Positions 7,827 to 62,887 are shown, counted from the first letter of the stretch. The stretch is 64,000 nt of DNA from an uncultured Alphaproteobacteria bacterium (GCA_963765855.1 CAVXYQ010000003.1:361177-425176); one strand, 5' to 3'. The notes: generated from the sequence alone by a model not told the origin. Made by a program: numbers and translations.

Positions 7827-7834
7827 ATCAACGA

Positions 7835-30476: not shown

Positions 30477-32429
<1,953 letters not shown>

Positions 32430-32772
32430 CTCTCAACCCTCCACCATGCGGCCAGTGAACGCGAGCACTGCAAGCCGTCTTCGTTGTTGCCATGAGTATG
32501 CGTCGGCCCGCCGGGCGCCGACAAGCCAGCAAATAGGAGCGATCCGGCGGGCCGCCGCCTTGCGCGGGATCAAGCCGCCGGCGAAATCAGCCAGCGGCGC
32601 GGCCGGGGGCGGTCCTCGGCCATCACGTTCGCGTTTTTCCGGCGCTGAATCCTGGCCAGGAGCAGCCGTCCGGCGATTGGACGGTAACCAGAAACCACAT
32701 CTTCCGGACGGCGGGCTGGCGCTGGAAGTGATTACGCCCTAAATGGCCCCCTCGAAGGCGGACGGCGAGGCC

Positions 32773-40754: not shown

Positions 40755-40830
40755 GCCGCAATAGCTCAGTTGGTAGAGCACGTCATTCGTAATGACGGGG
40801 TCACAGGTTCGAGTCCTGTTTGCGGCACCA
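40755..40830 (+). tRNA. tRNA-Thr(CGT)
   Basis: GCCGCAA/TTGCGGC acceptor stem, anticodon stem CGTCA-TTCGTAA-TGACG, GGTTCGAGTCC, encoded CCA. Confidence 0.97.
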
Positions 40831-40901
40831 GCATTTTCAAATACTTAGGTCAAATCCTATTTTGTTGAAATACGGTTAGGTACGCTATAGGTACGTTCCA
40901 C

Positions 40902-41087
40902 CTAATGCTCAGTGCTGTCGTGGCGCACAGGAAAGCCGACGTTGCGCGCCCACGCCATCAAGCACGCGTTACAGACGGTCTCGTTTAGTGGTATTTCGTC
41001 GAGATGGGCGCGAAAGGCTGGGCGCTCGCTGGGCCAGATGCGTGAGCAAAGCGCACATTGATCTTCGCTTACATAGTCCTCCGACAT
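40902..41087 (-). CDS. Small Cys-rich hypothetical protein (61 aa)
   Basis: CALC...CNAC; GAGG upstream. Confidence 0.42.
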   Translation of the reverse strand: MSEDYVSEDQCALCSRIWPSERPAFRAHLDEIPLNETVCNACLMAWARNVGFPVRHDSTEH

Positions 41088-41116
41088 TGCGGCCTCGATT
41101 AATGTAGCGGTTGATT

Positions 41117-41794
41117 ATGAACGCGATTTGGAAACACTTCGTTGCACCTCATTGGCCGGAGTTGCCTAGCAACCTCCGCAAAGGCCTGTTCCGTTTGTAC
41201 ATCGCCCTGTCGCTGCCGTGGGTGGTGTGGTTCGGATATCAGGTGGCTTACTACGCAAATCAGCCGAGCTATTGGGCGAGCACGCGACAAAATTTACCGA
41301 GGTCTATCCTACTTTTATTATTTGTCCCCGTAGGCCTCCCGATCCTTTTGAAAATAGTTCTCTGGGTCGTGCAAGGGTTCGCTCGCTCGCCGAACCGACC
41401 CATTGCAAAGACATCCATCCGAACGGACTTAGATCAGCTTAGATTGAAGGTGGCAGAGGATTTATCGCGTCGGCCTGACTTCGTCGCTAATAAATATTTG
41501 AGGACTGGGTGGCTGTATGGCAAGCATATAAACAACTGGCCCCGCCTCGATGATGCCAAGCTTAGCGCCGATCAAAAGGCCAAGCTCCCAGCGTCATACT
41601 ACCAAGAAGGTGGGATCGATCCGGCGGAGCTGGGACGGTGTTTTGGGTATGGGACCGGGGACGGAATGATTGAGAGGCTAGTTCAACTTCAGGATCAAAT
41701 TCGAGTGTGCGGAAGCATAGAGAATCTTGTCGACGGCCTTGTAGATAAAGAAATCATCAAGCGCTTGAACGGAAATACGAAACGAACCAGCTAG
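41117..41794 (+). CDS. Two-TM membrane cargo protein with soluble C-terminal domain
   Basis: KGLFRLYIALSLPWVVWFG and ILLLLFVPVGLPILLKIVLWVVQGF TMs; AT-richer codon use; opposite strand to the element core. Confidence 0.75.
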   Translation: MNAIWKHFVAPHWPELPSNLRKGLFRLYIALSLPWVVWFGYQVAYYANQPSYWASTRQNLPRSILLLLFVPVGLPILLKIVLWVVQGFARSPNRPIAKTSIRTDLDQLRLKVAEDLSRRPDFVANKYLRTGWLYGKHINNWPRLDDAKLSADQKAKLPASYYQEGGIDPAELGRCFGYGTGDGMIERLVQLQDQIRVCGSIENLVDGLVDKEIIKRLNGNTKRTS

Positions 41795-41908
41795 CCAAAT
41801 TCCGGAATTTTCCACTTCGTGCCGGAGGGGTCACTGCCCAAGCCAAGCGCGCGAATTTTGGGGCCGGGGGTGAGGTCGGCCCCACCCCTCCGGTGAGATC
41901 GCCCCGGC

Positions 41909-42457
41909 CTATTGCAGCGCGCGCCAGATGGTGGCTTCACCGCACTCGTACTCGCGGGCAAGTTCGGCCATGGTCTCCCCGGCGGCGTAGCGCGTGGCGA
42001 TGGTGCGGCGCTGGCTGGGGTCAAGGGCGGAAGGTCGGCCGAACTTAGTGCCCTTGCGCTTGGCGCGGGCAATGCCTTCCTCGCAGCGCTTGCGGATCAG
42101 GCCCCGTTCGAACTCGGCAATGCCGCCCATGATGGTGAGCATCAGCCGGCCAATGTCGGTGGTGGTGTCGCACCATGCTTCGCCCAGCGAGGTGAAGCCG
42201 CACCCAGCAGAGGCGAGGTCGCCTAGGATGTTGTGCAGGTCGCGCGACGATCGGGCGAGGCGATCTAGCTTGGTGACGACTATGGTGTCGCCCGGGAGCA
42301 GCGCACGCTTGAGCTTGTCGAACTCCTTGCGGCCCGTTGTCGATTTGCCGGACGCCTTCTCGCTGAATATCCGCTCGCACCCCGCCCCTTTCAGGGCTTC
42401 AATCTGTCCGGTGTAGTCCTGGCTCTTAGAGCTTACCCGCGCGTAGCCGTACCGCAT
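41909..42457 (-). CDS. Serine recombinase (resolvase/invertase) with C-terminal HTH
   Basis: YGYARVSS catalytic Ser, FSEKASG, VTKLDRLARS, AEFER, GRPS, HTH. Confidence 0.96.
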   Translation of the reverse strand: MRYGYARVSSKSQDYTGQIEALKGAGCERIFSEKASGKSTTGRKEFDKLKRALLPGDTIVVTKLDRLARSSRDLHNILGDLASAGCGFTSLGEAWCDTTTDIGRLMLTIMGGIAEFERGLIRKRCEEGIARAKRKGTKFGRPSALDPSQRRTIATRYAAGETMAELAREYECGEATIWRALQ

Positions 42458-42473
42458 TGAAAGGCTCCTTTTT

Positions 42474-42553
42474 GAAAGTAAGACTTTCGGAATATTAATT
42501 CATCGACAGAACAAGGTCAATCCGTTTCTTTCAAAACCTCAACATTTCGGAAT
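42474..42553. promoter_or_regulatory. Candidate res subsites upstream of the resolvase
   Basis: GAAAGT-AAG-ACTTTC palindrome and TTTCGGAAT repeated at 42485 and 42545. Confidence 0.4.
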
Positions 42554-42867
42554 GGTAGCGCGCGGGCGGAGCGAGAGCGCGCGGCTTCAAGGTTGCCCGC
42601 GAAGCCATCCTGCTTACGGCCATAGCTGTGATCGGCAACTGCCAACTTCGGATACAGGAACGGCAACAGCGCAATTGCTGCCCGCATCTGCTTCCCGGTG
42701 ATTGATGGGTCACCACGCACCGCACGCATTAGGACTTCCTTCGCGTCGGCTTCGAGCAACGCAGGCGATGCCTCCGCTTCCATCACCTCAACCGCAGGCC
42801 GATCCAACAGAGGCCTAAACCTAAACCGATGCCCCGGATCAGGGTCATCATCACCAACATTCGACAT
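42517..42867 (-). CDS. Hypothetical protein, tentative terminase-small-subunit-like
   Basis: MRAAIALLPFLYPKLAV resembles helical motifs of small phage packaging proteins (recalled); located downstream of rep/ori. Confidence 0.5.
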   Translation of the reverse strand: MSNVGDDDPDPGHRFRFRPLLDRPAVEVMEAEASPALLEADAKEVLMRAVRGDPSITGKQMRAAIALLPFLYPKLAVADHSYGRKQDGFAGNLEAARSRSARALPFRNVEVLKETD

Positions 42868-42872
42868 ATCTC

Positions 42873-43010
42873 GTTCCACCTTTTCCATTTACTTCCATCT
42901 GTTCCAGCTTTTCCATCAAAATAATAACTCTTCTCCTATGATTACCTATCACCGGAGGGTTGTTGGCCAGTGCCACTCAAAAGGTGGAATTCGGTGGAAA
43001 AGGTGGAACA
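42873..43010. other. Candidate replication origin: opposed iteron arrays around an AT-rich core
   Basis: TTCCA at 42874, 42883, 42893, 42902, 42911; AT-rich 42916-42950; GGTGGAA at 42983, 42993, 43002. Confidence 0.62.
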
Positions 43011-43016
43011 TCATGG

Positions 43017-44646
43017 TCAGTCCTCATCTTTCTTTTTCGGTTTGACCCGAATGCCGAGCCATACGCGTGGGCTAGAGCCGGTCTGTCGCCAGCCGGTGAC
43101 GTGACCGAAGCCATCGACACCCTTGAGCCGCTCGCCGAATTTCTTATCGCTCACGCTGCGGAGGACATCTTGGCGATCATTCCGAGCGCTCCAGCTTTCG
43201 AACAGCGTATAGGCTTTCGACTTCACCACCATTCCCGAGTGATCGACCTCGAAGGTTTCCAACACGAACGCGGTGAAGGGGTCACTCGCGGCGAGTAGGT
43301 CTAGCTCAAGCACCCGGCTGGCGCTGGGCTGGATGAAGCGGCCATTGCGGCAAAGATCGCCATATGCGCGAACACAGCGGACCGCGATGCCCGATAGCTC
43401 GGCTCGGAGCTTCGCCCGCAAGTCTGGGTCCTCACGGCCGTAGAAACTCACCGGGAAGTGCAGCTTGATGAACCGCGACGGAAGCACACCGCCCGGATCG
43501 TTGAGGTTGGGGACCTCATTGCTGATTAGCGTGAGCTTGATCCGAAGTTGGCCCTGCCACGGTCCCAGATACTTCCGGCCGATCGTGATGGTGTCCTCGC
43601 CGATGATATTCAGCAATAGCTCGGCGCTGGCGTGACTAATCCCGCCCGGATCATAGCTCTTGCCGAACGCGCGGCCCTTCGGCAATCGAACGTCCGGGAA
43701 CACGCCCACTCGCTTGCCGATCAATGATTGCTGGGAATTCTCGCCCCAATTCCAATTGGCGAAGCTAAGCCCGGCATAGCTTGCACCACCCACAAGATGC
43801 TCCATGACGTGAGCGATGGTGCCCTTGCCGCTACGCTTCTCACCGATGAACATCGCCCCTTTCTGGAAGCGAGTTTCATCGGTCATGCAACACCCCATCC
43901 ATTGTTCGACGAAATCGACACTCTCGACATCGCCCTTGAAAACGTCGAACAAGAATGCTTCCCACGTTGGGCATTCGGCGTCTGGGTCCCAATCAAACCC
44001 TAGCGCATTGTGGACCCAAAGGTCTGGCGTCAGCGGCCGAACTTCTTCGGTCAACATGTTCACCAATGCCATTCTGAAACACCACCCAATCCTTTGCGCT
44101 CTTGCGGGCTTCTAGCCAGATGGGCGGCTGGCATTCGAGCCCCAACGCCAGTTGGCTCTTGAGCGCATCAATCGTTTCGTTCACATGGCGCGGCGTCGGC
44201 TGAAACCGGATCAACTGTTCTCCCGACCGCTTTCGGGAGCCATCGAGGAAGCGGTAAACCTGTTGGCGCATCACTTCATGCGGGACCGCTTCATATACCC
44301 GGCCGCTCCAGCGATAGAATTGATCCTGCCAGAACCATAGTGTGCCCCGGCCATCAAGCATTGCGGTGGAGTGAATAAACTCGCTCGCGTTATCGTAAGG
44401 TGCGCCGGGATTAAGCACAGGGCTTGTGTCGATCGGCCGCGCCTTCGGTTCGGGCTTGGGCTCGGGGGGCGGCACCATAGGCTTAGGCGCTAGCTTGGCC
44501 TCCGCCTCCGCGCGTGCCTCGTTCCCGTAGCGCTTCCCCAGCCGATCCAGCGCTAGCTTCTGTTCCTCCAGCCCGGCTTCGCCAATCGCGTGCACAACCC
44601 GTTCAACATCCAACACCCACAATTTCGCCGTTGCGGTCTCATTCAT
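43017..44646 (-). CDS. P4/D5-family SF3 helicase (phage/plasmid primase C-terminal type), +1 frameshift near 44067
   Basis: D5_N-like WFWQDQFYRWSG...VFQNG.VN...LGFDWDPDAECPTWEAFL; Walker A GEKRSGKGT; LISNEVP; SRFIKLHF. Two ORFs join on removing one base. Confidence 0.87.
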
Positions 44647-45007
44647 CGTCGAAGGCTCCCCAGTGACCGAACCCAAACGGGTCAAGCTGGCGACGGTGCT
44701 CCCGATCGGCCCTGCGAAATTGCTGGTCCATTTCCCAATGCCGCTGAGCCGCAGCGATATCAATCCGAACTTCGCCCGGCCGCAGCGGCGGCAACACGGG
44801 TTCGGGCCGCCGCACCGCGATGTGGGTTCCGCCACGCCGCTGCGCGTTACGATCGGCGGGCGACACAATCACGTCGGCATCGCGGACCACTTCATTGTCG
44901 CGGACGACCACCTTGGGCTTTGGCGGCTTCGGCGGAGGTGGCTTCGGATCAGGACCCAAGATAGAATCCAATAGCGCCTCGACTTCGGCTTTGCGCTCTG
45001 GGGTCAT
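44639..45007 (-). CDS. Hypothetical protein (122 aa, Pro-rich)
   Basis: Stop overlaps the helicase start; start overlaps the upstream stop (ATGA). Confidence 0.7.
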   Translation of the reverse strand: MTPERKAEVEALLDSILGPDPKPPPPKPPKPKVVVRDNEVVRDADVIVSPADRNAQRRGGTHIAVRRPEPVLPPLRPGEVRIDIAAAQRHWEMDQQFRRADREHRRQLDPFGFGHWGAFDDE

Positions 45008-45363
45008 CGCTGCCTCCCCAGCTTGCGTTCAAGTTCCGCGCGGTCCTGTGCGGCCTGTGCGTCTAGCTGGGCTTCGACGTAGCGGTTCTTGCCGGACACC
45101 ATCGGCTGCCGGATCAACCCAGCCGTTCTGTGAGCGCGGCCCGACCTGGGCCGCCGAAGAGGACGCATTGGCCTGCGGAATGATGCCGCTGCGTTCGCGG
45201 GTGCGGCGGTTATCGCGGACGATCGATTGCATCAGGTCGTCGGGCACGGCGCGCCGCGCATCGCGCGTCCACGCTTGCCGTGGCGCGTCAACGCGCCGCT
45301 CAGCGGGCGGAGCGAAGCCATCGGAACCAGGGGCCGTTTCAATTCTTCATCATTCTTCGACAT
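45004..45363 (-). CDS. Hypothetical protein (about 119 aa) with two apparent single-base indels
   Basis: Reconstructed MSKNDEE-IETAPGSDGFAPP..AVPDDLMQSIVRDN..GWVDP-QPMVSGKNRYVEAQLDAQAAQDRAELERKLGRQR*; TGA overlaps the next ATG. Confidence 0.55.
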
Positions 45364-45683
45364 GATTAGTTTCCTTTCCACGGCCAACCCTCGGGCTGGT
45401 GATCGGTGAAGCCGAAGGGGTTGCGATTGTGATCCGGCCTTGTGAACGGTTCGACCAGCGCCCGGGCACCTTTCCTGCGGCAGAGCGATCGCGTTGCCGA
45501 GGGGTTCCTGTTTCATGGTGCCCTTCGCAAGGCCGATGCCATCCTGGTTCGCATGACCACGGCGTTGCCAACGCGGGACACGGCGCCCGGGTTGATTTTG
45601 TTGGCGCGTGGTGATCCGGTGTTCACTGGAGGCCGAACATTTTTATTCGAGGTGATTCCGCCGCCTGATTTAGCTTTTGTCAT
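45364..45683 (-). CDS. Gly/Lys-rich hypothetical protein, frameshifted; 3' end uncertain
   Basis: GGAG RBS then MTKAKSGGGITSNKNVRPPVNTGSPRANKINPGAVSRVGNAV, continuing in another frame as GHANQDGIGLAKGTMKQEPLGNAIAL...PGAGRTVHKAGSQSQ. Confidence 0.5.
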
Positions 45684-45922
45684 TGGATCGATCTCCTTTC
45701 ACTGTGGTTGGTAGTTGATTGGATTTTCATAAGCTGGATGGTCGCTTGCGCGCGAAAGCGGCGATCTGGGCAATGCGCGCTAACGCAAGCCAGCGTCGCT
45801 TCGATAATCGGCTCTGCGCCGGGGCAGTCGTATGCTTCAAGCGGTGCATCTTGATAAAATCGCCATTTGTCACCGCAGATGCACTCGGGCCAAAGCCCGC
45901 AACGGTCGGGTTCACGCTTCAT
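45680..45922 (-). CDS. Cys-rich hypothetical protein (80 aa)
   Basis: CGLWPECIC...CVSAHCPD; overlaps neighbours at both ends. Confidence 0.55.
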   Translation of the reverse strand: MKREPDRCGLWPECICGDKWRFYQDAPLEAYDCPGAEPIIEATLACVSAHCPDRRFRAQATIQLMKIQSTTNHSERRSIQ

Positions 45923-46283
45923 CGGTTTGCTCCCCCGCTTCGGGCTCAGGCCACTCGTTGTTAGCCGTGAGAAGATTGGGCAAGTCATCCACCCGAATGC
46001 CAAGGGGCGGTTCGGGGCCAGTGGGATCAGCCGCCCATGCGGGACCGACTAGCATCGATTGATCCAGCGGCGGGGCGGCGTGAGTGACTGCACCGAACCG
46101 CCCCCCGGCAGCATCGGCATCGGTGGCCGCCTTGGCGTTTGCCATCTCAAAGTAAGTCGTCGGCTCTGGCGCTTCCCGCAGCCGCTGCTCATTGCGGAGC
46201 ACCGCTCGCTTTTCGTCCATCGTGGCGTCGTTGTCGAAGGCGCGGCTAGCGTAGTCACTATGCTGCGTTCCGGTATCGGTCAT
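45912..46283 (-). CDS. Hypothetical protein (123 aa)
   Basis: GGAG RBS; acidic; WAADPTGPEPPLG motif. Confidence 0.7.
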   Translation of the reverse strand: MTDTGTQHSDYASRAFDNDATMDEKRAVLRNEQRLREAPEPTTYFEMANAKAATDADAAGGRFGAVTHAAPPLDQSMLVGPAWAADPTGPEPPLGIRVDDLPNLLTANNEWPEPEAGEQTDEA

Positions 46284-46298
46284 CTCGATTTCTCCTTG

Positions 46299-46523
46299 CT
46301 ATTTGAGGTTTGGAAAAAGTGCTTTAGCCGCGTTGATCGGTGCGGGTGCGGAGTTCGCGTTGGCCCGTTGAGCGAGCCCGTGAACCACTTCAATCACTGC
46401 GGGGTCATCGCCGAGGCCAGACGAATTCATCCGGGCTTTGAAATCGGCGACGATCTTTGGATCAAGCGATGCGTAAGCGCGGCCAACGGTTGCTAGGATT
46501 TCTTTGGCGCGGGGATGTTTCAT
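46299..46523 (-). CDS. 74-aa protein resembling the C-terminal end of podophage scaffolding proteins
   Basis: GGAG RBS; MNSSGLGDDPAVIEVV...AAKALFPNLK. The similarity is recalled, not searched. Confidence 0.6.
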   Translation of the reverse strand: MKHPRAKEILATVGRAYASLDPKIVADFKARMNSSGLGDDPAVIEVVHGLAQRANANSAPAPINAAKALFPNLK

Positions 46524-46540
46524 GGGGCGAGTCTCCTTTG

Positions 46541-46954
46541 CTATTGCGGTACCGACCACGTTCCGTCGGTGGGATTTGATCGAAGGGTGACAGTGGCGAA
46601 ATTGGTGGCGATTGAAATTGAGGGCACGCCGCTGATTGTCTCGCCCGGCTGTGCGTTGATAGTGATCGGGTTGGCTTGGGCATGCCCGCCTTCGTCAACG
46701 ATGGTTACGGGTACGATGGCGAGGGACGGCGGTACCCCGAGCACGCCCTTGGCCCGGGGCAGCGTCAGCACCACAGCGCCAGCAGCGACGTTGACCTTGA
46801 CCATCGCAACGCCGAACGGAAGCGCTAGGGCCATCGCTGCGGTTATGGAGAGCGACCCGCCAGCCACGTCCACCCACCCGATCGAAGGACCGAGATTGAC
46901 CCTTGTTGATTGGAGCGAGACGCCAGAGCGGTCCCAATCAATCGACGCTGGCAT
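46541..46954 (-). CDS. Beta-rich 137-aa protein, virion fibre/decoration-like
   Basis: VVLTLPRA..VTIVDEGGHAQANPITINAQPGETISG..SISIATNFATVTLRS; Val/Ile/Thr/Gly-rich alternating pattern. Confidence 0.68.
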   Translation of the reverse strand: MPASIDWDRSGVSLQSTRVNLGPSIGWVDVAGGSLSITAAMALALPFGVAMVKVNVAAGAVVLTLPRAKGVLGVPPSLAIVPVTIVDEGGHAQANPITINAQPGETISGVPSISIATNFATVTLRSNPTDGTWSVPQ

Positions 46955-47100
46955 TGTCGCTCTGCTCTGTTTGGCGATATCGCCTCACGGCTTCGCGCCG
47001 TTCGTTCGCGAACCAGGCATCCGAGCAAGTCCGGCAGCAAAAGCGCTGCTTCTCCTCACGCGGCAGCGAACGGTTCGCCGCATTGATTGCAATTCTTCAT
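46938..47100 (-). CDS. 53-aa zinc-finger protein, one apparent extra base (absent from the ORF track)
   Basis: AAGAGG RBS; MKNCNQCGEPFA-PREEKQRFCCRTCSDAWFANERREAV...*; the region is 163 nt, i.e. 162+1. Confidence 0.55.
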
Positions 47101-47200
47101 CGTGACACACCTCTTTTCATTCTGATCTAAGTCTTGAGTCACTGCTGGCAGAAGTAAACGCTCATGGCTTTCTTCGCGCGGCCTTCAATGCGTGGTGCCG

Positions 47201-47240
47201 AAAAGAAAAGGGCGCTGAAGCGGAATGCCCCAGCGCCCTT
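47201..47240 (-). terminator. Intrinsic terminator after the alpA-DUF3102 unit
   Basis: Minus strand AAGGGCGCTG..CAGCGCCCTT followed by TTCTTTT. Confidence 0.75.
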
Positions 47241-47262
47241 AATCGTCGAGTGTTGGTTGATG

Positions 47263-47695
47263 TTAGTTCGCGATCTTGCGCGGCTTCCCGTTTCTTCCGT
47301 TTATCGCCAAGAAACTTCAGCGCCTGCGCCTGAGAAAACGCAGAGCTCTTCGTTTTGCCGGAAAGGAAAGGAGCTAGAGCAGGTTCGTGCTTGGCAAGGT
47401 GCATGTAGTTTTGTGCGGTCCTGAGAGATAGGCCGCACTCCACCGGGACATAGTCTTGCCAGAGCACGTCCTTGTGGCTTTTCTTGAGATCAGCCTTCAG
47501 CGCGATTAGCTCTTTACCAGCCGCGATTGCTGCGCGGAGGCTATCGGTAAGAGCTTCCAAGCACTCTTGGTGCGCCCGACGAATGTTGGCGACCCGGTTC
47601 TCGACGGTCGATATCACAACGAGTTCGCCTTTTGATGTAGGGGCTGCGGCCTCCGACGCACCAATCGATAGGAGGCGCTTAACAAGCTCGCTCAT
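47263..47695 (-). CDS. DUF3102-like protein (as read it runs to 47162; probable true stop 47263)
   Basis: AIAAGKELIALK...WQDYV...GLSLRTAQNYMHLAK pattern; ATGA overlap with alpA. Removing one G gives a KRKKRKPRKIAN* stop just before the terminator. Confidence 0.68.
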
Positions 47696-47928
47696 TGCTC
47701 CGCCCTCCCGGCGATCATTGCCTGCAAAGCCGCCTCGCATTCACTGCGAAGCCATCGCGAGGTGTTAGGGCCGACCTTGATTGGGGCCGGGTAGCGTTTA
47801 GCGGCAATGCCGCGATAGATGGTTGAGGGGTCGAGGCCGCCGAAGAGACGGCAGACTTCCTTAAGGTCGAGTAGGTCAGTATTGTGTGAGGCCGCACGCG
47901 GCTCCTCACACTGCGGTTGCAGTGCCAT
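47692..47928 (-). CDS. alpA: AlpA family excisionase/transcriptional regulator (78 aa)
   Basis: [44 protein letters not shown]; GGAG RBS. Confidence 0.9.
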
Positions 47929-48023
47929 CGGATCACTCCGTTGTTTGAGAAGCTGGCGGGCAGACCCTACCCTTTTCGGGATCGCTGGGCCTATCGGGGC
48001 GTCACCCCACCTTGTCAGTCCCC

Positions 48024-48025
48024 AC
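48024..48025. other. Abrupt junction between Bradyrhizobiaceae-like and Acidobacteria-like DNA
   Basis: The DUF1553 motif [13 protein letters not shown] (normally followed by ELLDWLA) stops at 48025 and abuts the alpA upstream region. Composition and indel density change here. Confidence 0.85.
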
Positions 48026-50262
48026 GGATGCGAGGCGGCTCGCCTTGCGCCCCAAAATCTTCGGCCGTCTTGACGATGCCCGTGCCAAACAATTCCTGCC
48101 AGAAGCGATTGACCGTGACCCGTGCCGTGAACGGGTTCGATGGGATCGACAATCCATTTCGCTAAACCCAGGCGATTCCGCGGCAGTGACTGCGCCATCG
48201 GCGGCAGCACTGCAGGCACTCCTGGATGCACCTCGTCGCGCATCTGATCGTACTGCCCTCGGTACAACACATGCGCCACCGGCTGCGTGTCAGTCCGTTC
48301 CTGCATCACAAACGTCACCGCACCCCGTCGCGCGATTTCGTCGCGCTCCGCATCCACCTGGTGCAACCGCGCCACCATCTTGCGGGCCCCGGGGTCTGCC
48401 AGATAGGTATACAGCTTCGCTCGCCCCCGCGCCGACCTTTCCGCTGCGTACAGCAGTTCCGCCTGTACTTCGTCGGCGTGGAAATTGAACATCTTGAATC
48501 CCGCAATCTGGGCGCCGGAAATTTCACCTTCGCGGGCGCCGCAATCGGATCCGCTAGAGGATTATTGTCGAGGCCGTCACCATACGTCGGAACAAAAGCC
48601 CGTTCACATACAGCGCTAGTCCTTTCCGGCTGCGGCTGCCGTCATAGGTGAACTGCAAGTGGCACCAAGTGTCTGCTTTCAACTCGTAGTCTGCCGCCGG
48701 CCGCGCCGTGAGGTATTTTCCGTTCGCTTCGAGAGTCAGTTCAGGAGCGCGACCACTCACACCTAACTGAGCCCCCATTAACGCTCAATGTCCAACCATG
48801 GCGCTTTCCGTCTTTGGGCGACTCTTTTTGACTCGCAATCGCAAATCCGCCCTTATCCTTTGGCACATAAACCCAAGCCTCAATCGTGAACGGTTTATCG
48901 ACTTCCGCCGGAACGCTAGGCAATTCCAGGGACGCGTCCTTCTCAAAATGCAAAGCTTTACTGAAGAGGGCTGGCCCATCCACCAGTGTTACGCCTTTTG
49001 GCATTCGACATCCATCTTCGACTCCGCCGTCACCGATTGAGCCGAGTAAACCTCAAACTTCCCGTCGCGCCGACGTTCGCCTGCTTCTCTCTTGGCAATC
49101 GCCGCACGTAGATTGGCTCGTTCCACACTCAAATCAGTCCAACGCTTCCAATCTTCTTGCCTCGGCACCACACGGTCGGCGGTGTGTCCGGAATGTTGCC
49201 ATCCAACGCCAATTGCGTTGTGTTGCGGAAGAACGCAGTCAGCGAATAGTATTCTTTCTGCGCAATCGGATCGAACTTGTGGTTGTGGCACGTCGCACAA
49301 CCCACCGTAAGCCCCAGCCAGACGATCCCAGTCGTGTCCGCGCGGTCTTTTGCGTACATTGCCTCCACTTCCGCGGAATCGAGCCGCCTTCGTTTGTGGT
49401 CACATTGCAGCGATGAAACCGGAGGCAATTTTCTGATTCAAGCGTCGCATTTGGCAGCAAATCGCCAGCCAATTGCTCAATAGTAAATTGGTCGAACGGC
49501 ATGTTGTTGTTGAACGCCCGAATGACCCACTCGCGATACGGCCACATTTCGCGGTAGTTATCGATATGTAGTCCTTGGCTATCGGCATAGCGCGCCGCAT
49601 CCAGCCAATAACGCGCCCGATGTTCGCCATAATGCGGCGAGGCCAACAAACGGTCGACTACTTTCTCATACGCTTTCGGCGATTGTCGTTGACGAACGCC
49701 TCCACTTCCTCCGGCGTTGGAGGTAGACCAGTCAAATCGAGCGTTACGCGTCCGAATGAGCGTCCGGCGATCGGGCTTCCGCATTCGGTTTGAGACCTTC
49801 AGCTTCCATCCGCGCCAACAGGAAGTGGTCAATCGGCGTCCGGACCCAGGCCGCGTCTTTCACGGCAGGCGGATTCTGCTTCACAGGCGGGATAAAAGAC
49901 CAATGCTCTTTCCACTGTGCTCCCTCTTCAATCCATTTACGAAGCGTATCCTTCTGTTCCGCCGTTAATGTCTTATGCGCCATGGCCGGCGGCATGCGAA
50001 AGAGGCGTCTTCCGAAAAAATCCGTTTGATAAGCAGACTCTCGTCAGGCTTGCCTGGAACAATCGGCGCGCCATTCTTGCGAGCCGCTAATGCCCCGTCT
50101 TTTATATCTAATTCGTAGATCGGCCATGCGGGTGCCTTTGTCGGGCCCATGGCAGAGAAAGCAGTTATCGGACAGGATTGGGCGAACTTGGCGCTGGAAA
50201 TCAACGCCGAGAGCCGCTGGGGCCGGGAGACATGCTGAACAGGCAAGATAAGCTCGGCGCAA
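48025..50262 (-). CDS. Planctomycete-type cytochrome c / DUF1549 / LamG / DUF1553 protein, many frameshifts, 3' truncated
   Basis: [86 protein letters not shown]. Confidence 0.86.
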
Positions 50263-50380
50263 TTTAATCGGCTCCTTGGGCAGAAATCAATTTCTTCTGA
50301 GTCTCAAAGTATCAGAACCGAAACCAGGAGAAAAATCCGGCCAAAACGCCACAAAAAAAGTTGACTTGTGCGTCGACTGC

Positions 50381-51051
50381 CTAATTTTTCTTTAAAGAGG
50401 AGGTACCGACCCCGCTAAAAGACCTTACGGACTGGTAGACGACGGCTGCAAGATGGCATCGGTGGCCAAACCCAGGCCAGTCAGGGCCGAGCCGGTCAGC
50501 ATAAAGGTAAGCCAGCCGGCGTTTGTGGTTGTTGTTATCGACGCTGGCGCCAGACGGCAAGGTGCTAAGGCCGTTTGGAAGGACAGACGCCGTTCCCGCG
50601 CTAATTCGGGTGAACAAACCGCCTTTTCGTCAAAAACGTTGAGCGAGCCCGACAGGCCGCAATTTCAACGCGCCCTCATTGATTCTCACAATGGCTTGAG
50701 AAGACGGCTTACCCTGACGTATATCGTACCCGTCAGCATGAACAGAGTAGCCCGTAAGGTTATCAACCTTGGTCGCTCCCTGGTTCAGCGTAAAATGGTC
50801 TCGAAAGATAGTACCAGCGGAGTCAACTCCCAGTACGAGAGCCGCCCCGCTCATCAGATACACTTTACTAGAGGCCTTATCGGTCCGTATGCGCGAACCA
50901 TCGAACAAATTGGCGTTGCCTTCAACTTCGGAACTGTTAAGCATAAATGTTCCGACGGCCGATGCTACGCCGATAGCCGGTGACGCAGCAATCACGTATG
51001 AAATCGTAACTGCCGCAACCACGAGGAGCTTGGGAATTTATTTAGCGTCAT
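50381..51051 (-). CDS. Secreted beta-rich hypothetical protein, frameshifted
   Basis: Signal-like start then SPAIGVASAVGTF..EGNANLFDG; continues across frames. Confidence 0.5.
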
Positions 51052-51140
51052 TATCGGAATCGCTAGGTAGTCGGCCTTTCAGGGTTACAACTTTCCGATT
51101 ATATCGAAATCGATTATGATGATCAAACAGAAGAATTGCG

Positions 51141-52545
51141 ATGAACTATTACGAGGAACTCGGAATAAGATCTGATGCGGACGAAGAGGAAATCCGCAAG
51201 GCGCATCGACGGCTGGTAAAACTCATGCATCCCGACCAACATCGGGACGCGGGTTTGAAGCAGCTTGCCGAAACACAGATGCGCCGCTTGAACTCCATCG
51301 TCGCAACCTTGCTCGACCCTGAAGAGCGGCGCGAGTACGATGAACAACTGCGCGGTGGCGAACCGTCGAACCGGCGCCGCACCAGAGTACATGGCGTTCG
51401 GTGCCGTGGTGGATTGCGAGCACTTTAGGGGCAATTGTACTGACGGTCGGTACTGTTTAGTTTTTTGCAGATCGCATGGGCTCGACGCGCACCCCCCCAA
51501 GAAACCCACCGCCGGACGTCGCAAATATCGCGCCGAACTACACCACAAGCACCGTGACAGTACCGGTACCGGTGCCAGCACAGACACCCTCGGTGAAACC
51601 ACCGGATGAAGTCACCACAGTTCCGGTGCCAACGCCTCAGCAAGTGCCGAATACGACGAAGTCTGAAGAAAAGAAACCAGAACCGGCAAAGCCTGAACCG
51701 CCGAAACCGGAGCCACCAAAGCCTGCACCAGTGGTTAAGACTCCAGAACTGGCCAAGGCAACCAAACCGCCGGAACCAGTGATCAGACCGTTACCACCGC
51801 CGGTTGTTAAGGAAACCGTTAAGAAGCTAGCTGTGGCACCGGCAGAAGCCGCCGGTCATAGCAACGCCAAGGCAGACGTCTGCGCAGCTAAAGCCGCCCG
51901 TGGCCACACATCAGCCACCTCCGTATAAAGCACCGGTGACCACTCCACCGTCGCCGCCTACTACGGTTGCCGTTGCCCCCAGAGAGGAGAAAGGTCCGAT
52001 CGTCTCGACACCTCCCCCGACACCTCCCGTGCCAACCCAGCCTAAGGAACCCGTAGTCATAGCGACCGCAAACCCACCCGCGACCGCTGTTGGATCGTCG
52101 CCCGCTAGGGAGACGTCCCCGCCGGATATTCCCAAAGCTACTTCTACGCCCACACCCGCTGTGGCAACGAATTACCGCAATAACCACGATCCGTTAGAAG
52201 GAGAATGGGTGTACGCGCCCACAGAGCCCGAAAAAACGGAAACCTGGATTCTTTCCGCCGCAGTTCATCCAGCTCAAGCTGGTGAAGGACCCGAACGGGA
52301 TGCATGGAGAATACAGCGCCCATTATCTAGTGGACAAGCCGGTATCGCCAGACGTGAATTTCGTAGTCAAAGCGACCGACCCAACGGCCATGAAATACAT
52401 TTGGACTGCCCCCAATGGGGCACATGGCTGGTTGATGATCGTTGATCTGGAAACGGATATGATGCGGCTTGAATGGAAGGATACCGGCAAGCACAACGGC
52501 CAGCAGCTTACATCAGGACAAGCGACTTTGGTTCGGAAAAACTAG
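51141..52545 (+). CDS. J-domain (DnaJ-like) protein with Pro-rich linker and C-terminal beta domain, frameshifted
   Basis: MNYYEELGI..EIRKAHRRLVKLMHPD..RREYD; PKPEPPKP linker; ends LTSGQATLVRKN*. Confidence 0.72.
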
Positions 52546-52567
52546 CTCGTTTCCTTTTAGACAAATC

Positions 52568-52608
52568 AAAAAGAGGGCGCGTCGAGACCAGACGCACCCT
52601 CTTTTTTT
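52568..52608. terminator. Bidirectional intrinsic terminator
   Basis: AAAAAGAGGGCGCGTC..GACGCACCCTCTTTTTTT between convergent genes. Confidence 0.8.
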
Positions 52609-52653
52609 GCGCTCAGCGAAGCTACTTTGGGACTAGCGAACCGTCGCCGACGT

Positions 52654-53112
52654 CTATTTAATCGCAACGTTGTGCGCGGTAGCGGCGGCGAAGATCCCTG
52701 CCTCGGCGAAATTGCTCGCAGCGAAGGCGAGGTGCCAATCGCGGTGTTTACGGAATAAAATCTGCGGCACCAAGACGCCCGAGGCTATCCCGGCTTTGAT
52801 GGCAACGCCTTTGGCGCCAAAGGTTCCATCTGCGGAAGCCAGAAGGCTGTTGCTTTCCCGCTTATGCCACGAACTGTAGGCATCCGCGGCTGTTCCTGCC
52901 GTCATCGCGGCGATACTGGCGATCCAAATCCGACGCATATGCTGTTCGTGCGGCGTTTCGACAACATTAGCAATTGTCACTTTTGAACTCGGCGCAGGGC
53001 TCGTGAACATACTCTGAGCGTGAATTGCACTGGCTGAACAGAGGAGCGCAACGGCGAGGCCAACTAGCCTAGAAGCTTTCATAATCATTCTCCGGATCGC
53101 AACAGCGATCAC
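52654..53112 (-). CDS. Hypothetical secreted/membrane protein
   Basis: Signal peptide; TAADAYSSW..ESNSLL..FGAKGVAIKAG amphipathic helices. Confidence 0.62.
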   Translation of the reverse strand: MIAVAIRRMIMKASRLVGLAVALLCSASAIHAQSMFTSPAPSSKVTIANVVETPHEQHMRRIWIASIAAMTAGTAADAYSSWHKRESNSLLASADGTFGAKGVAIKAGIASGVLVPQILFRKHRDWHLAFAASNFAEAGIFAAATAHNVAIK

Positions 53113-53161
53113 AGGAATAATCGGCGGAATTGGCCTGCTTCTTTAGAAAAGAGTCAGTCGA

Positions 53162-54200
53162 TTAGCGTTTGTCGCTTATGAAGGCAGGTGAAGTCTTGGG
53201 GGAAGCCAATTCGGCTTGAGCCAGCAGAACATCCGCATCGACCATCATGTGGACAAGCTGCTGGAACGAAGTCTTGGGCTTCCAGCCGAATGTTTCGGGC
53301 TTTAGAGGGATCGCCAAGAAGGTAATCGACTTCGGTGGGGCGGAAATATTGGGGGTCGATTTCAACATACTGTTCCCAATCGAATTGCAGATATTGAAGG
53401 CAATATTTAGGAATTCGCGGACGGAATAGGCTTCGCCCGTGGCGACGACGAAATCGCCGGGTTCTTGCTGCTGCAGCATCATCCACATGGCTTCAACGTA
53501 ATCGCCGGCGAAACCCCAGTCGCGGCGCGCATCGAGATTACCCAGATAAAGCTTCTTCTGTAGGCCAGCTTTGATGCGGCCGAGGGCGCGTGTGATCTTG
53601 CGGGTGACGAAGGTTTCGCCCCGGCGCGGGGATTCGTGATTAAAGAGTATCCCGTTACAAATAAACAGGTTATAAGCTTCGCGATAATTGAAGGCCCACC
53701 AATGGGCGGCGACTTTGGCGACCGCGTATGGGCTGCGCGGGATAAAAGGGCGTCGCTTCGCTCTGCGGGGGCTTGGCGGCACCGAACATTTCGGAAGAAC
53801 CGGCTTGATAGAACCGGACCTGGCGAGTGGAATGGGCCATGTAATCGCGGATGGAATCGAGGAGACGGAGGGTGCCGACAGCGACGGAATCGGCAGTATA
53901 TTCGGGGTTTTCGAAAGACACCTTGACGTGGGACTGGGCGCCGAGATTGTAGACTTCATCGGGCTCGGCAATTTCGAGGATGCGGCGGAGGCCAGTGGCG
54001 TCGGTGAGATCGCCGTAGTGGAGGTTGAGGCGGCGGCCGGCGAGATGGGGGTCCTGATAGATGTGGTCGATGCGGGCGGTATTGAAGCTCGACGAACGGC
54101 GAATAATGCCGTGAACCGTATAGTCCTTGGCCAACAGAAATTCGGCCAAATACGAGCCGTCTTGTCCGGTAACTCCAGTGATAAGGGCGGATTTTTTCAT
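53162..54200 (-). CDS. gmd: GDP-mannose 4,6-dehydratase, frameshifted
   Basis: [71 protein letters not shown]. Confidence 0.96.
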
Positions 54201-54288
54201 AGTTTTGAGGCCTTCAGCCACGGATTAACGCGATATATCAAGATTAACAAACGCGGCACGTTGGCAGCTGATTAGGTATCGTACAGAT

Positions 54289-54603
54289 ATGCGGATCACG
54301 GTCTCACACAATAAATCGAAAGAGCAGATCGTTAAGGCTGTCGACCGTTCTTTTGACGACCTTTTCAAGGGTTCGCCCTTGATACCTATCCAGGTCGCAA
54401 ATGAAAAGCGCGAATGGCAGGGGAGCACTCTGGTCTTTTCCTTCAACGCCACGATGGGCCTGTTGAGCGCGCCGATCAAGGGCACAGTGGCCGTGAGCGA
54501 TCACGATGTGACGATTGACGCCGACTTGGGCTTGCTTGAAAAGCTGTTAGGCGGTGGGATGACAAAAACACTTGAAACCCGCGTGAAGGGTCTTCTCACC
54601 TAA
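54289..54603 (+). CDS. Polyhydroxyalkanoic acid system family protein
   Basis: ITVSHNKSKEQ..WQGSTLVFS..IKGTVAV..VTIDADL pattern. Confidence 0.68.
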   Translation: MRITVSHNKSKEQIVKAVDRSFDDLFKGSPLIPIQVANEKREWQGSTLVFSFNATMGLLSAPIKGTVAVSDHDVTIDADLGLLEKLLGGGMTKTLETRVKGLLT

Positions 54604-54635
54604 AGCGTGCCTTAGGAGTTGCCGATATTCCGTTA

Positions 54636-58827
<4,192 letters not shown>

Positions 58828-58828
58828 A

Positions 58829-59863
58829 TCAAGCGCGCCCGAGCAGCTTTTTCAAATAGCCGAGACTCGCATCCAGCGCCTCGCGCTCTCGCCTTGGGCT
58901 CATCTCCTTTTTCCCATGGCTCCTCTTGATAAGGCTTCCCGCGCTCCGCGATTTCCAGAAATCTCTCAAATTCCCATGCGGGAGTTTTGCGGAAGCAATC
59001 CCAGAATTTCGCTTCTTTAAAAGGCAATGTTCGTGGACCAAAATGATCGATTCTAAAGAAAGGCGCGGCCCTGGACAAAGCTCGATATATTTCTTCACAT
59101 AGCTTCGATGTCTACATTGCCCCGCCCCATCTCTACCCAAGTCACCGACGCACCTTGCGGAACGTCCACACCGCGCTATCGCTTAATGGCTGGTCAAGAC
59201 ATAAGGATGCAAACTTCTAAGGTCAGGTGCGGATCTTCGATGGTCCACAAAGGATTGCCAGAATCCAGACAAACTCCAACAAAGTCTCTGCCGACCGTTT
59301 CAATCAACATTTTCAGCTCCCGGGCCTGCATGTCACCCGCGTGGTTCTCGATTGCAATCTTAATGTTCTTGTCGATTGCTTTCGACCGAACATTCTTCAA
59401 AACCTTAGCGGTATCGTCAATGCGAGCTTCAATGGGACCAGGTTTAATACGGTCTTCGCCACTGCCCAAGACGCAGCGCACAATCTTAGAACCCACGATA
59501 TCGGCCGAATCGATCATCCGCCCTAATTGCTCTTCCGCAGTACCTTCTTTCGGTCTCGAACATTCTGGAAGTGGGGCAGATCGATCTCATGCCGATCTCT
59601 ATTTCGAGCCCAAGTTCGCTGGCTTGGGCGCGCACTTTGCGCAAATGATCGGGTTCCAAGGTTACCGATAAAGCGGATCTCGGAAAAATGCACGACCTGC
59701 ACTTTGCGGGCGGCGCAGTAATCGAGAGCCTCAAGGGGCGTCCATTTTGAGCCCGCAGGCTAAATAGATCGATGCCTATTTTCGCGTTTTCGTATTTATG
59801 AATATCGCCATAGCAGCCTGCCGGTATAGCTGCTCCTATTGCCAGGAATTCGCGTCTCTTCAT
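58829..59863 (-). CDS. Sugar phosphate isomerase/epimerase (AP endonuclease 2 TIM barrel), Tat-like signal, frameshifted
   Basis: MKRREFL signal; KIAIENHAGD, GVCLDSGN, MGRGNVDI. Confidence 0.8.
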
Positions 59864-59943
59864 CTCGTCAGCATCGTATCAGGGTGATTAGATCGCTCGC
59901 CTCTGTCGGAAGGTCTCTTATAAATTGAATCTCTGGGGGAAAC

Positions 59944-60303
59944 ATGGCGACAGAGACACATACTGGCAGACTAAATTTCGGATGACTGTCAAGTTGCGAT
60001 GGACGACGGCACGGTTCTTGGCCGTGTTCGAAAGTCCGACATCCTTGCGCCACGGCTGTTGCGCAGCTATCGCGAAATGGGGAGAAACACAGCCGGTGAC
60101 AGTAACTGGGACGTCGGGCACGGTTGATAATGCTCCGGTGCTTGTTCGTGACCAGCATTCAATGGGCAGTGAGCCTGCGGATTAGTCCACGGCCAGTGCG
60201 TGCCGCTGGCGCCTGCACCTACACCGAGTGCTCGACGCCCGCAGCGGCACCGCCGCCGCCACAACAAAGTAAGAAGTCGGCGAGGAGCCGTTCGAAAAAG
60301 TGA
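59944..60303 (+). CDS. Possible small hypothetical protein, frameshifted
   Basis: GGGGA RBS and ATG 59944; fragments in several frames; TGA overlaps the GTG at 60300. Confidence 0.3.
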
Positions 60304-62719
60304 GACAGTCATTGCGAATCCCAGTCGTTTTACTGCTTGTGCAACAATCGTTTCGGAGTCAGGCGCAAACGCCCACACCGGTGGAGGAGCCACCCGCTCA
60401 GGCACAAAAGCTTTTGCAATATGCGGCACAACTGGAAGAAGATGCCAAGCGCGCGCGATCGGCGGGCCAGCAACATGCGCTCGCCGGCCACCAAGATATG
60501 TCTGCCGAGCAGCTGATCAATCAGCGGACGAGCACCCACAACGGCATCTACGTCGATCAGCCGAAGGTATATGACGATTCGCTGCTCCAGCAAATGCTGG
60601 CGTCGGCACAAAGCCACTTGGCGGCGCTGCAAGGCTTCGATCAAGGGAGCTTGACCAGAGCCATCGGAGGGGTGACGGGAGCGAATCAGCAGATTGCAAG
60701 TTTTGGTATTTCGGGAGGCATGCAGCCACCAGTTCAGCAAACGTCTTTTGGGGCAATATACGTCGCCTTTTCCGGCGCCAAGCGCGGCAGCACCGGGACC
60801 ACCACAACTCTGCCCAGCTCGCTGCACCTTCGGCGTCCGACATTCTGGATGAGCAAGTGCAGCTCACGTCCGAGATCGCAAACTTGCGGCTGCTGCTCGA
60901 AGGCTCGCTGTCCGATCAGATCATGGTCGGGCCGATGAAACGTTCGCCAAGCCGCGCGTGACGCTGGGCTTTCCTCGTGATCATTTCGCCAGAGAAGCGC
61001 TATAAGAATGCGGTGGCGATTGTGGAAGTACTGGTGGAAACGAAAAGCCAGAACGACGCCAGCCGGAATGGAGAACCGCCTTCGATCACGGCTCTGCTGC
61101 CGCAGGAGAAAACTTATAACGTAGCGGCGATCTCGGACAGAAGCGCGTCCTCGGCGCCGGCTTCGCCACGGCGATGGCCGGTGCGGCTGCGCAGCTTCTT
61201 TGGGGCCACAAACAGTACTTCATCGTGAAAGATCAAGACACGCTGGCTGATGCAATTCGAACCACGGATCCGGAACTGCGCTGATCGCTGCCAGATCGCA
61301 AGCCGATCGACAAGCAGCGGTTACGCGCCTTCGCCTGGCAGTTTCGTCCCGTGCTGGGACGTCAATTATGTGCAGGCCGGTGTCGCGGCAAGTATTCGTG
61401 CAACTGGCGTTTCCCGGGCCGCGGTCGCTCGGCGTGAAATCGTTCGGTACCGTGCGCATCCGAACTTACTGGCGCAAAATCGACCGCAAAACCGGTGTGC
61501 TGCGACGGGATCGTGCGGGGTTCGCTGGCACGAGGCGACAACGGCGAGCCCGATCTTGAACTACGACATGCACCAGAAATGGGGCGCCGTGGCTAGCTTC
61601 AATCCCACTGACTATGGAAGACCTAGGCGGTCGGGCAAGATGCTGATCAAACTCGAAGGGCGTTTGCTGCCCGGCACCTATTTGCGTGTAGGGTTCGAAC
61701 ATCATTCAACCCGGCGCAGGCGTGTGCCGTCCGATTCAAAACCACGCGCTTCTGTGGCTAACATTGCCGACCTTGCCACGCTCGAGACGTTCATCATCTC
61801 GCGCGACGGAACAGAAATATCCGCTCAAGAATCAAGCCGGGTGCGATAAACAATTCAGGGTGGATCAGGCGCACGTAAGAGTCACGCCAGCTTGACGATG
61901 CCACGGTCGCTGCTTGAGAGTGCCCATCACCAACTTCATTGCATCGCAAGACATCCCTCCGGTGTTGCTAATCGGCGGAAAAGTTTATCGGTTACTCCGA
62001 CGCGCCCATCGATCGCAAATGCAATCCCGCCGCCGGAACTTGCGTGCTTTCGGTCGCACTGCCCAAGGCGCTGTTGATCGTCGAGTCCCACTGATCTCGG
62101 TAAAGGCGCTGATGCTCGACGAAGATGGTCTGCAAACTCCGCTCGGCGGCCAACCGCACGTTCACGCTATTCCCGCAGAGCCATGTGCCCGAACAAGCTG
62201 GTCCTCCTCGGTCACGATCAAACCACCGCAACCTATCTGGTGTACGGCCATGACCTCAACCAAACGAAAATCATCTGGCCTGCGCGCAATGCCGATCCCG
62301 CCTGCCCACCCAACCAGCTGTGCCTGCAGCCCATCAGCACCGACGCCAGACGATGGATCGTTGAAGCTCGCTGAAGGTGCCCCTCGATATGGTCAAAGAG
62401 CCGGAACGGTCTCGTCATTCGCAAAGGCCGAGCCTGCAGTGACCATGCCTGCGGTGCCTGCTCTGCCGTATCCGGCACACCCTCGTCCGCAGCGCCGCGA
62501 CCGAAGAAAGTACCGGTCCCAAGTTCAAAGAGCGAATCGTGGTGGGCGCGGATGAGGGTACCATCGTAGGCCAAAAGCTCGATCGGTCATTACTGCCGTT
62601 ACGTTTGCGGTAAACCGCTCACCATCGCCAGCCGAGACGCCACGGCTCTTAAAATCAGCGGTTTAGCCGCGACCGGTGCTTCGGCGGTCGCGAAGACCCA
62701 GGACATTGTCACTTTTTAA
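60300..62719 (+). CDS. Large secreted hypothetical protein, many frameshifts; end approximate
   Basis: Signal-like start; IYVDQPKVYDDSLLQQML, PPSITALLPQEKTYNVAAI, LIKLEGRLLPGTY fragments in shifting frames. Confidence 0.5.
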
Positions 62720-62887
62720 CGCGGCTGGTAACCAGCAAGATCCCATTAGAAGTAGTCTCCGGCAGGGTAGAGATGTAATCCAATAAGTATCAGCGCGTGT
62801 TAACATGACAAAGTGCCTGGAACTTGCGGCAAATAAAGGCCCATGTTGTCAACAGGCCTTGATCGGGTCGCAAGTTTGCGGCTGCGC

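Follow-up and report, generated by a model that had tools for sequence, protein, structure and literature searches.

In this work we have analysed a stretch of 64,000 nucleotides (nt) from an uncultured Alphaproteobacteria bacterium (GCA_963765855.1 CAVXYQ010000003.1:361177-425176; hereafter, the window) and within it an element that lies at positions 40831-48024, next to a tRNA-Thr gene. The original prediction, made from the sequence of the window alone, took this element for a member of an undescribed family of satellites resembling the phage-inducible chromosomal islands (PICIs) and placed it in a Bradyrhizobiaceae genome. We found that the element has close relatives and that together they form a family of small integrative self-replicating islands of Bradyrhizobium and related Nitrobacteraceae and Xanthobacteraceae. 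The window copy is almost certainly a truncated member of this tRNA-targeting integrative replicon family. That the family consists of PICI-like satellites which depend on a helper phage is a reading of its gene content, helper dependence included, and we judge the case for it to be evenly balanced. In the literature that we searched, neither this family nor any satellite in Bradyrhizobium is described.

The family can be described from its members in public genomes and metagenomes. The loci compared come from B. diazoefficiens (L001-L003), B. liaoningense (L004), B. frederickii (L005) and B. embrapense (L048 and L049), from alphaproteobacterial and Xanthobacteraceae metagenome-assembled genomes (L006-L009), from a JGI metagenome contig (L050) and from a Logan contig (L052). 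Their common architecture comprises an integrase gene (int), alpA, a DUF3102-like gene, several small open reading frames (ORFs), a helicase gene, an ORF of 108-114 amino acids (aa), a convergent resolvase gene and the cargo. The integrase is of the P4 type, with 413-426 aa and the domains Arm-DNA-bind_3, Phage_int_M and Phage_integrase; its gene lies directly upstream of alpA and in the same orientation. Four members are bounded by perfect direct repeats of 47-50 bp which represent the 3' half of a tRNA gene and start in its anticodon loop. These are L001 at tRNA-Thr(CGT), with a repeat of 50 bp and a unit of 16,254 bp, L004 at tRNA-Lys(TTT) (47 bp; 16,303 bp), L005 at tRNA-His(GTG) (50 bp; 16,091 bp) and L048 at tRNA-Thr(CGT) (47 bp; 15,664 bp). 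Complete copies with an integrase and a repeated tRNA 3' end, whose existence had been foreseen, were thus recovered from four Bradyrhizobium species. The tRNA is at the cargo end of the complete relatives and int is at the far end, which matches the layout of the window. Over the first ~8.4 kb, L001, L004 and L005 are 70-84% identical; their cargo halves are largely unrelated. The cargo of the relatives consists of anti-phage genes that match known or candidate defence systems: HEC-06/GmrSD (5.5e-72), a PD-T4-6 kinase (5e-42), PDC-S15 (7e-32), a caspase-like protein and a type II methyltransferase. In the nine annotated relatives, the Pfam tables (those of L001-L003 and L048-L052 included) list no family of phage structure or lysis (capsid, portal, connector, large terminase, tail module, holin) and none of conjugation (relaxase, coupling protein, type IV secretion system (T4SS)). 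The morphogenesis modules of a prophage and the conjugation genes of an integrative mobilisable or conjugative element (IME or ICE), which the original prediction had named as the findings that would speak against it, were therefore not seen in these loci.

Unit lengths of the four complete copies fall between 15,664 and 16,303 bp despite the largely unrelated cargo halves, and L052, an apparent member of 8.3 kb (contig 1-8292; unit 8,262 bp) whose ends are formed by int and DUF6953, is about half as long. The size of ~16.2 kb is a hint of a packaging limit. The first and last 30 nt of the L052 contig are identical (k-1) around a single continuous 46-nt core resembling tRNA-Thr(TGT) that would serve as the attachment (att) site. 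This contig is ambiguous: it may be an excised circle or a tandem copy, and simplification of the assembly graph of an integrated copy fits equally well. Among the Logan contigs of the B. liaoningense isolate we saw the integrated form only. Just beyond the outer repeat of the B. embrapense element (L048 3565-5265) there are another resolvase gene (227 aa) and a 304-aa ORF, perhaps what is left of a further element that had inserted at this tRNA-Thr.

The window copy shows the same plan at its tRNA side. The integration target, tRNA-Thr(CGT), occupies 40755-40830 on the plus strand (ARAGORN; 73 bits with the Rfam tRNA model), and comparison with the direct repeats of the relatives defines the tRNA-side att core, which corresponds to the 3' 48 nt of the tRNA, at 40783-40832 (plus strand). 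This segment shares 86-88% identity with the repeats at the ends of the elements in B. diazoefficiens and B. embrapense. The GC content is 0.70-0.76 before the tRNA and drops to 0.52-0.65 immediately past its 3' end. The tRNA-Thr insertion, the fall in GC and the gene inventory were all described correctly in the original prediction, as ARAGORN, the GC profile, the ORF analysis and the family scans agree. Some of its details need correction. Codon-position GC and ORF analysis place the gene train on the minus strand, where it is read from ~48000 toward the tRNA, and alpA is therefore the train gene most distant from the tRNA and not the first one after it; the low GC content does not end at 48024 but persists up to the end of the window. 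The order in the train is alpA, the DUF3102-like gene, a terminator, about eight small ORFs that mostly overlap or almost abut, the helicase gene, the origin, the ORF with a terminase small subunit (TerS) motif and the resolvase gene. No integrase gene is present within the window, since the element stops at 48024, and a second copy of the tRNA 3' end of at least 12 nt was not found anywhere in the window. The integrase and the second att site are thus indeed lost at the junction, as had been supposed; they are not to be expected just beyond 48024, where the DNA is unrelated and the join is likely to be a chimera.

Is the host a member of the Bradyrhizobium family, as proposed? The acetyl-CoA synthetase encoded at 30477-32432 is 89-90% identical to its Tardiphaga, Bradyrhizobium and Rhodopseudomonas counterparts, and for this reason we agree with that placement. 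The GC content of the host, 72%, is unusually high for the family. Exact-sequence look-ups of three window proteins returned no record. In peat metagenomes (public runs X1, X5 and X9) the host flank is covered at a depth of 7-20x and the element at 2-4x, and at least five different sequences were seen after the tRNA 3' end (position 40830-40832). These differing depths and alternative sequences indicate that the tRNA-Thr site is a strain-variable integration hotspot.

The gene at 43017-44646 (minus strand), which carries a +1 frameshift near 44065, encodes a superfamily 3 helicase of the P4 family with D5_N and DUF5906 domains, identified with Pfam, PHROG and NCBIfam; its match to TIGR01613, the NCBIfam domain 'phage/plasmid primase, P4 family', has an E-value of 8.3e-36. 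Its PHROG matches are to the C-terminal halves of phage 'DNA primase' families and begin at profile position 232 or later (the best at ~340 of ~770), and hence the protein has no recognisable primase domain. When the frameshift is read through, the helicase shows 84-89% identity with homologues of 551-568 aa that have no interruption, and hundreds of homologues of ~550 aa exist, nearly all from Bradyrhizobium or from soil and peat metagenomes. A homologue is carried by 511 phage records, against 50 plasmid records, and no plasmid homologue covers 80% of the query. A repeat search placed an iteron-type replication origin next to the helicase gene, at 42868-43010. The iterons, GGAAAAGGTGGAAC, flank an AT-rich spacer, with two or three copies per side and the two groups inverted relative to each other. 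The window contains 12 matches to GGAAAAGGTGGAAC, five of them within 42873-43009; shuffles of the whole window gave an expectation of 3.8, and a count of 12 was not attained in any of 100 shuffles. The origin of B. diazoefficiens occupies the same place after the helicase stop codon and has the same layout of inverted iterons and AT-rich spacer with different iteron sequences, as is expected if the helicase and the origin co-evolve. A related element contained in IMG/VR, L044, has a separate ORF upstream of its helicase gene (4216-5292) which, judged by eye, appears to be a primase of the Prim-Pol type; in the Bradyrhizobium-type members no primase is recognisable.

Beside the origin lies a gene that suggests an association with phages. 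It encodes a 123-aa protein (42517-42888, minus strand), which was delimited by family comparison and with phrog_641, and each of the eight loci compared has it in this position, with products of 108-114 aa in the relatives; the protein family has ~1,300 small unannotated homologues. The phrog_641 profile, 'terminase small subunit', was matched by six of the eight members (best E-value 1.8e-6) at profile positions 92-132 of 162. The same motif, '...VRAATAALPFLYPKK', occurs in a 159-aa ORF of L054, a 41.8-kb phage contig from IMG/VR, where the ORF is directly upstream of genes for the large terminase subunit (TerL, with ATPase and nuclease domains), an HK97-type portal (2e-100) and an S49 protease. 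An hhalign comparison of the family with this ORF gave a probability of 82% and an E-value of 1e-5. The phrog_641 matches and the position of the L054 ORF before TerL justify the earlier label 'TerS-like' at the level of the motif. On this sequence evidence the protein looks like a small terminase subunit that has kept only its C-terminal conserved segment. A tblastn search with the protein against phage genomes gave nothing.

A further possible contact with phage particles comes from the small-ORF operon. The 137-aa product of the ORF at 46541-46954 (minus strand) was modelled with AlphaFold2 (AF2) with a pLDDT of 86 and a pTM of 0.75, and a Foldseek search with this model matched the N-terminus of CBA120 TSP4 (E = 1.6e-5, probability 1.0), a baseplate protein of Klebsiella phage KP1, T4 gp10 and T4 gp9; the model also matched 215 viral models at E <= 1e-3. 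There are also weak matches to Pfam T4_gp9_10_N and to a PHROG baseplate family, and in longer homologues the domain precedes a pectate-lyase beta-helix, that is, a tailspike. By its predicted structure, the ORF is a stand-alone tailspike or baseplate anchor domain of the T4 gp10/gp9 N-terminal type. The closest homologue (63% identity) occupies the same position in L052; an unrelated ORF stands there in the 16-kb members. The ORF of the relatives that we call orfB was considered as a homologue and ruled out by comparison, and it has no match in the Protein Data Bank (PDB). The original prediction was right about the lack of capsid, portal and large terminase genes in the element; its claim that there is no tail gene does not strictly hold.

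How would such an island behave as a satellite? A helper phage, probably an HK97-type siphovirus with a TerS of the phrog_641 family, would trigger the AlpA-dependent excision of the island, and the helicase would replicate the excised circle from the iterons. The TerS-motif protein encoded beside the origin would then recruit or redirect the large terminase of the helper, and the island would be packaged in helper capsids. In the subgroup formed by the window copy and L052, the stand-alone gp10-type domain may in addition dock on the helper baseplate. The fullest version of this proposal would be an undescribed satellite lineage of soil Alphaproteobacteria which hijacks HK97-type helpers through a minimal protein reduced to the C-terminal motif of the helper TerS, carries ~8 kb of exchangeable anti-phage defence cargo under a capsid limit of ~16 kb and in some members re-tools the baseplate of the helper; we regard it as tentative, and somewhat more doubtful than the satellite lifestyle as such. 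The window copy could not pass through a satellite cycle as it stands, because it has neither int nor the att site on the int side (attR) and four of its core genes are frameshifted.

Several observations weigh against the satellite reading. The similarity to TerS spans just a motif of 36-40 residues, and the window's own protein fails to reach phrog_641; its AF2 model is poor (pLDDT 67) and has no fold match in Foldseek, and a PDB-HMM search gave no PDB sequence match. The gp10-like gene is present in two members only, the window copy and L052. No gene for capsid-size control or packaging interference was recognised, and scans of all ORFs with Pfam, PHROG and NCBIfam contained no capsid-morphogenesis family, the kind of gene that type A PICIs carry. 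The circle-like L052 contig can be explained in more than one way, the clustering of sizes is seen in four complete copies only and is broken by the 8.3-kb member, and in one isolate the depths of element and flank were 98:89, at best a weak hint of mobility. Islands with int, alpA and a primase gene that carry defence cargo and are not shown to be satellites exist as well. We give the putative satellite lifestyle an even chance. A helper-manipulation module formed by the small ORFs is likewise conjectural: their sole link to virions is the gp10-like ORF, which is variable within the family.

Could the islands do without a helper altogether? They might be defence-carrying replicating islands that excise and integrate and have no dedicated route of transfer, being inherited vertically or spread only by chance, through generalised transduction, transformation or particles like gene transfer agents; both the TerS motif and the gene resembling gp10 would then be leftovers of a phage ancestry. 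Our direct evidence extends to int, att, a replicon and defence cargo, the links to phages are short or confined to few members, and the element is strain-variable in the peat metagenomes, where it reaches 2-4x against 7-20x for the host flank. However, the occurrence of the TerS-motif gene in eight of eight loci at the same position, together with its ~1,300 small homologues, points to selection and not to decay, and the conservation of the core across four tRNA targets and several species argues for efficient horizontal spread. We therefore consider this explanation unlikely, if still the strongest of the alternatives. Less probable again is an integrative mobilisable element which rides on rhizobial conjugative plasmids or ICEs by means of the helicase and origin region or of an unrecognised oriT. 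ICEs and conjugative plasmids are numerous in bradyrhizobia (PMC10127595). There are mobilisable islands that have nothing but an oriT, and a small serine recombinase, such as the one conserved here, is more usual on plasmids and transposons. Yet neither the window nor any annotated relative has a relaxase, coupling-protein or T4SS family, records with a helicase homologue are far more numerous among phages than among plasmids and none of those from plasmids covers 80% of the query, and genes with a TerS motif or a tailspike anchor have no role in conjugation.

The condition of the window copy itself, with four frameshifts, no integrase and a gene for a tail-type domain, would suit a decayed prophage. 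We find this explanation hardly credible, since intact relatives with perfect att repeats share the gene order and never contain capsid, portal, TerL, tail-module or lysis genes, and a constant architecture and size are not expected of random decay. The frameshifts affect four conserved genes: the helicase gene near 44065 (in the context 'FQNGI|g|VNMLTEE'), orfD near 45115, orfC near 45520 and the zinc-ribbon ORF near 47066. None of these sites falls in a long homopolymer run, and ~900 nt of the element that lie under exactly matching public Illumina contigs contain no indel; for these reasons we lean towards real decay. On the other side, the ~900 nt include none of the four sites and are too little to decide the matter, and the frameshifts could be errors of the consensus. 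With these frameshifts, an inverted resolvase gene, almost no cargo and neither int nor attR, the window copy is defective and probably inactive.

The end of the element at 48024/48025 deserves separate consideration. The segment 47929-48024 (minus strand), identified by nucleotide comparison, is a remnant of the int-alpA intergenic region that reaches up to the junction, and its part 47949-48019 matches L005 6683-6754 at 89% identity; the L005 stretch begins 58 nt and ends 129 nt past the int stop codon of that locus. From 48025, the minus strand carries the end of a DUF1553-type gene which is cut in the middle of a motif. Illumina-based contigs from three soil-metagenome runs match the window at 95-99% from 48034 and continue past the cut with the expected 'SHPQLLDWLA'; compared with them, the window has ~16 indels of one or two bases in 1.7 kb, or about one per 100 nt. 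DNA that crosses 48024 was found in no public run, and the peat and soil runs contain either the element side or the other side. The region 48025-64000 has ~55% GC compared with 72% for the host, and genes for PSCyt2/DUF1549 (49239-49832), a GDP-mannose dehydratase, a histidine kinase and GH35/DUF5597 between 48 and 64 kb are each split by frameshifts. Long intact ORFs are present, by contrast, in the 40 kb of host DNA left of the element, and in view of these findings we attribute 48025-64000 to error-rich DNA of another organism, probably of low coverage. The join is most likely an assembly chimera and less likely a real rearrangement. The window thus also serves as a warning of a chimeric contig.

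The resolvase gene (41909-42457, minus strand) encodes a small serine recombinase of the resolvase/invertase type with 182 aa (Pfam Resolvase, 7.5e-39, and HTH_7). In the window this gene and the helicase gene share a strand, and in seven of seven relatives the two are on opposite strands; the resolvase gene is hence inverted in the window, where its flanks (41795-41866 and the TerS-motif gene, 42578-42805) keep the orientation seen in the relatives. It could be a Hin-like invertible cassette; no inverted repeats were found around it. The flanking segment 41795-41866 is a conserved non-coding stretch of ~67 nt adjoining the resolvase gene, detected by nucleotide comparison and 79-83% identical to L004 14798-14864, L005 14005-14075 and L052 7812-7880. 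Between the resolvase gene and the tRNA the window copy retains ~1 kb of cargo with one ORF (41111-41794, plus strand), which encodes a predicted membrane protein of 227 aa without a match in Pfam, NCBIfam or PADLOC.

At the other end of the train, alpA (47692-47928, minus strand) encodes an excisionase/regulator of the AlpA type with 78 aa. It matches phrog_66 (3.9e-6), scores 19.2 bits with Pfam Phage_AlpA, under the cut-off of 21, and is 66-84% identical to the product of the gene that follows int in the relatives. The DUF3102-like gene (47162-47695, minus strand; 177 aa) overlaps alpA by ATGA. Its product matches PHROG families of unknown function (6e-6) and has no Pfam match of its own; homologues are present in six loci, and some of them, including that of B. 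diazoefficiens, show a weak match to Pfam DUF3102. A strong intrinsic terminator with a 14-bp stem, nine GC pairs and a T-run lies at 47208-47240 (minus strand), between the alpA/DUF3102-like pair and the operon of small ORFs and replication genes. The hairpin is 93.5% identical in L052 and is conserved in L004 and L005 as well, and from this conservation at the nucleotide level it would seem that the genes for replication and packaging are controlled either by read-through or by a promoter of their own. A match over the terminator to BjrC68, a small RNA of Bradyrhizobiaceae, was weak (Rfam 17.7 bits, E = 0.71); it was absent from the relatives at the gathering threshold and we dropped it.

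The remaining small ORFs all lie on the minus strand. The NinG-like zinc-ribbon ORF at 46941-47100, frameshifted near 47066, was recognised by two-frame translation and by tblastn with its L004 and L052 homologues. A 74-aa ORF at 46299-46523, supported by ORF and codon-position GC analysis, has no family match in PHROG and Pfam scans. The 123-aa ORF at 45912-46283 was identified by tblastn as a homologue of the C-terminal 'YFEM...PAW' part of the orfA of the relatives, and it is followed by a conserved Cys-rich ORF of 80 aa (45680-45922), shared by six loci at ~64% identity. Two-frame tblastn with orfC of L050 and L001 defined orfC at 45415-45683, a Gly-rich 'GGGITxNKNV' protein gene with the frameshift near 45520. 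The orfC family ('GGGITxNKNV ... GPGxGRTVHxxGSQ') comprises this copy, L001 8879-9229 and 7463-7846 of the IMG/VR viral contig L044; it is kept across the island family and matches no known family. The conserved small gene orfD (45013-45280, with the frameshift near 45115) was found in the same way with the product of L005 9260-9619. A conserved 122-aa ORF (44639-45007) overlaps the start of the helicase gene and is present in seven of eight loci at 56-64% identity, with no family match in Pfam, PHROG or NCBIfam.

What would the islands mean for their hosts? If they are satellites, Bradyrhizobium, a crop symbiont, gains a defined vehicle that moves defence systems between strains. They would also offer a tractable test case, with intact copies in cultured B. 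diazoefficiens, B. liaoningense, B. frederickii and B. embrapense, and possibly a new packaging trick in the form of the TerS fragment. If they are not satellites, they still form a family with clear limits, whose members target tRNA genes and bring their own replicon, and this helps to annotate the 'small genomic islands' of Bradyrhizobium. Kaneko et al. (PMC3927601) described small islands of low GC content in B. japonicum and B. diazoefficiens which lie at tRNA genes and are bounded by the tRNA and a duplicated part of it; islands of this sort have been on record since the genome papers. The relatives reported here are of this kind; in that study the islands were treated generically, without a family, a replicon or a mechanism of transfer.

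Among known satellites, the core components of PICIs and the SatelliteFinder model (both as listed in PMC10085698) served as our reference. The closest layout is that of the PICIs of Gram-negative bacteria, for example EcCICFT073, which share with this family co-oriented int and alpA genes and a replicase gene beside an iteron origin; the gene after the origin resembles their TerS gene at the level of a short motif. They are also alike in their size of ~8-16 kb, in the absence of capsid, tail-module and lysis genes (the stand-alone gp10-type anchor domain of the window and L052 aside) and in accessory or defence cargo at one end. Unlike them, however, the islands have no recognisable capsid-morphogenesis, Rpp or Ppi genes, and their TerS relative is a C-terminal motif only, in a protein of 110-123 aa. 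They also keep a small serine recombinase and a DUF3102-like gene, target tRNA 3' halves and live in soil Alphaproteobacteria. With the P4-like satellites they have in common the integrase domains, the tRNA target, AlpA, the TIGR01613 helicase domain and a cargo of defence genes, such as P4 and PICI hotspots also hold. They differ in that no homologue of psu, delta, sid or epsilon was detected with Pfam and PHROG among the small ORFs of the window and L001 and in that their helicase, unlike P4 alpha, is without an N-terminal primase domain. The PICMIs of Vibrionaceae (phage-inducible chromosomal minimalist islands), defined by integration beside fis and built of about six genes (PMC10803314), resemble the family in their core of int, alpA and a DUF5906-type primase/helicase and in the lack of capsid-remodelling genes, and L052, at 8.3 kb, is similarly compact. 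In contrast to PICMIs, the Bradyrhizobium islands integrate into a tRNA 3' half and not beside fis, and they share ~15 conserved genes and features, including the TerS-motif gene, the iteron origin and the resolvase gene.

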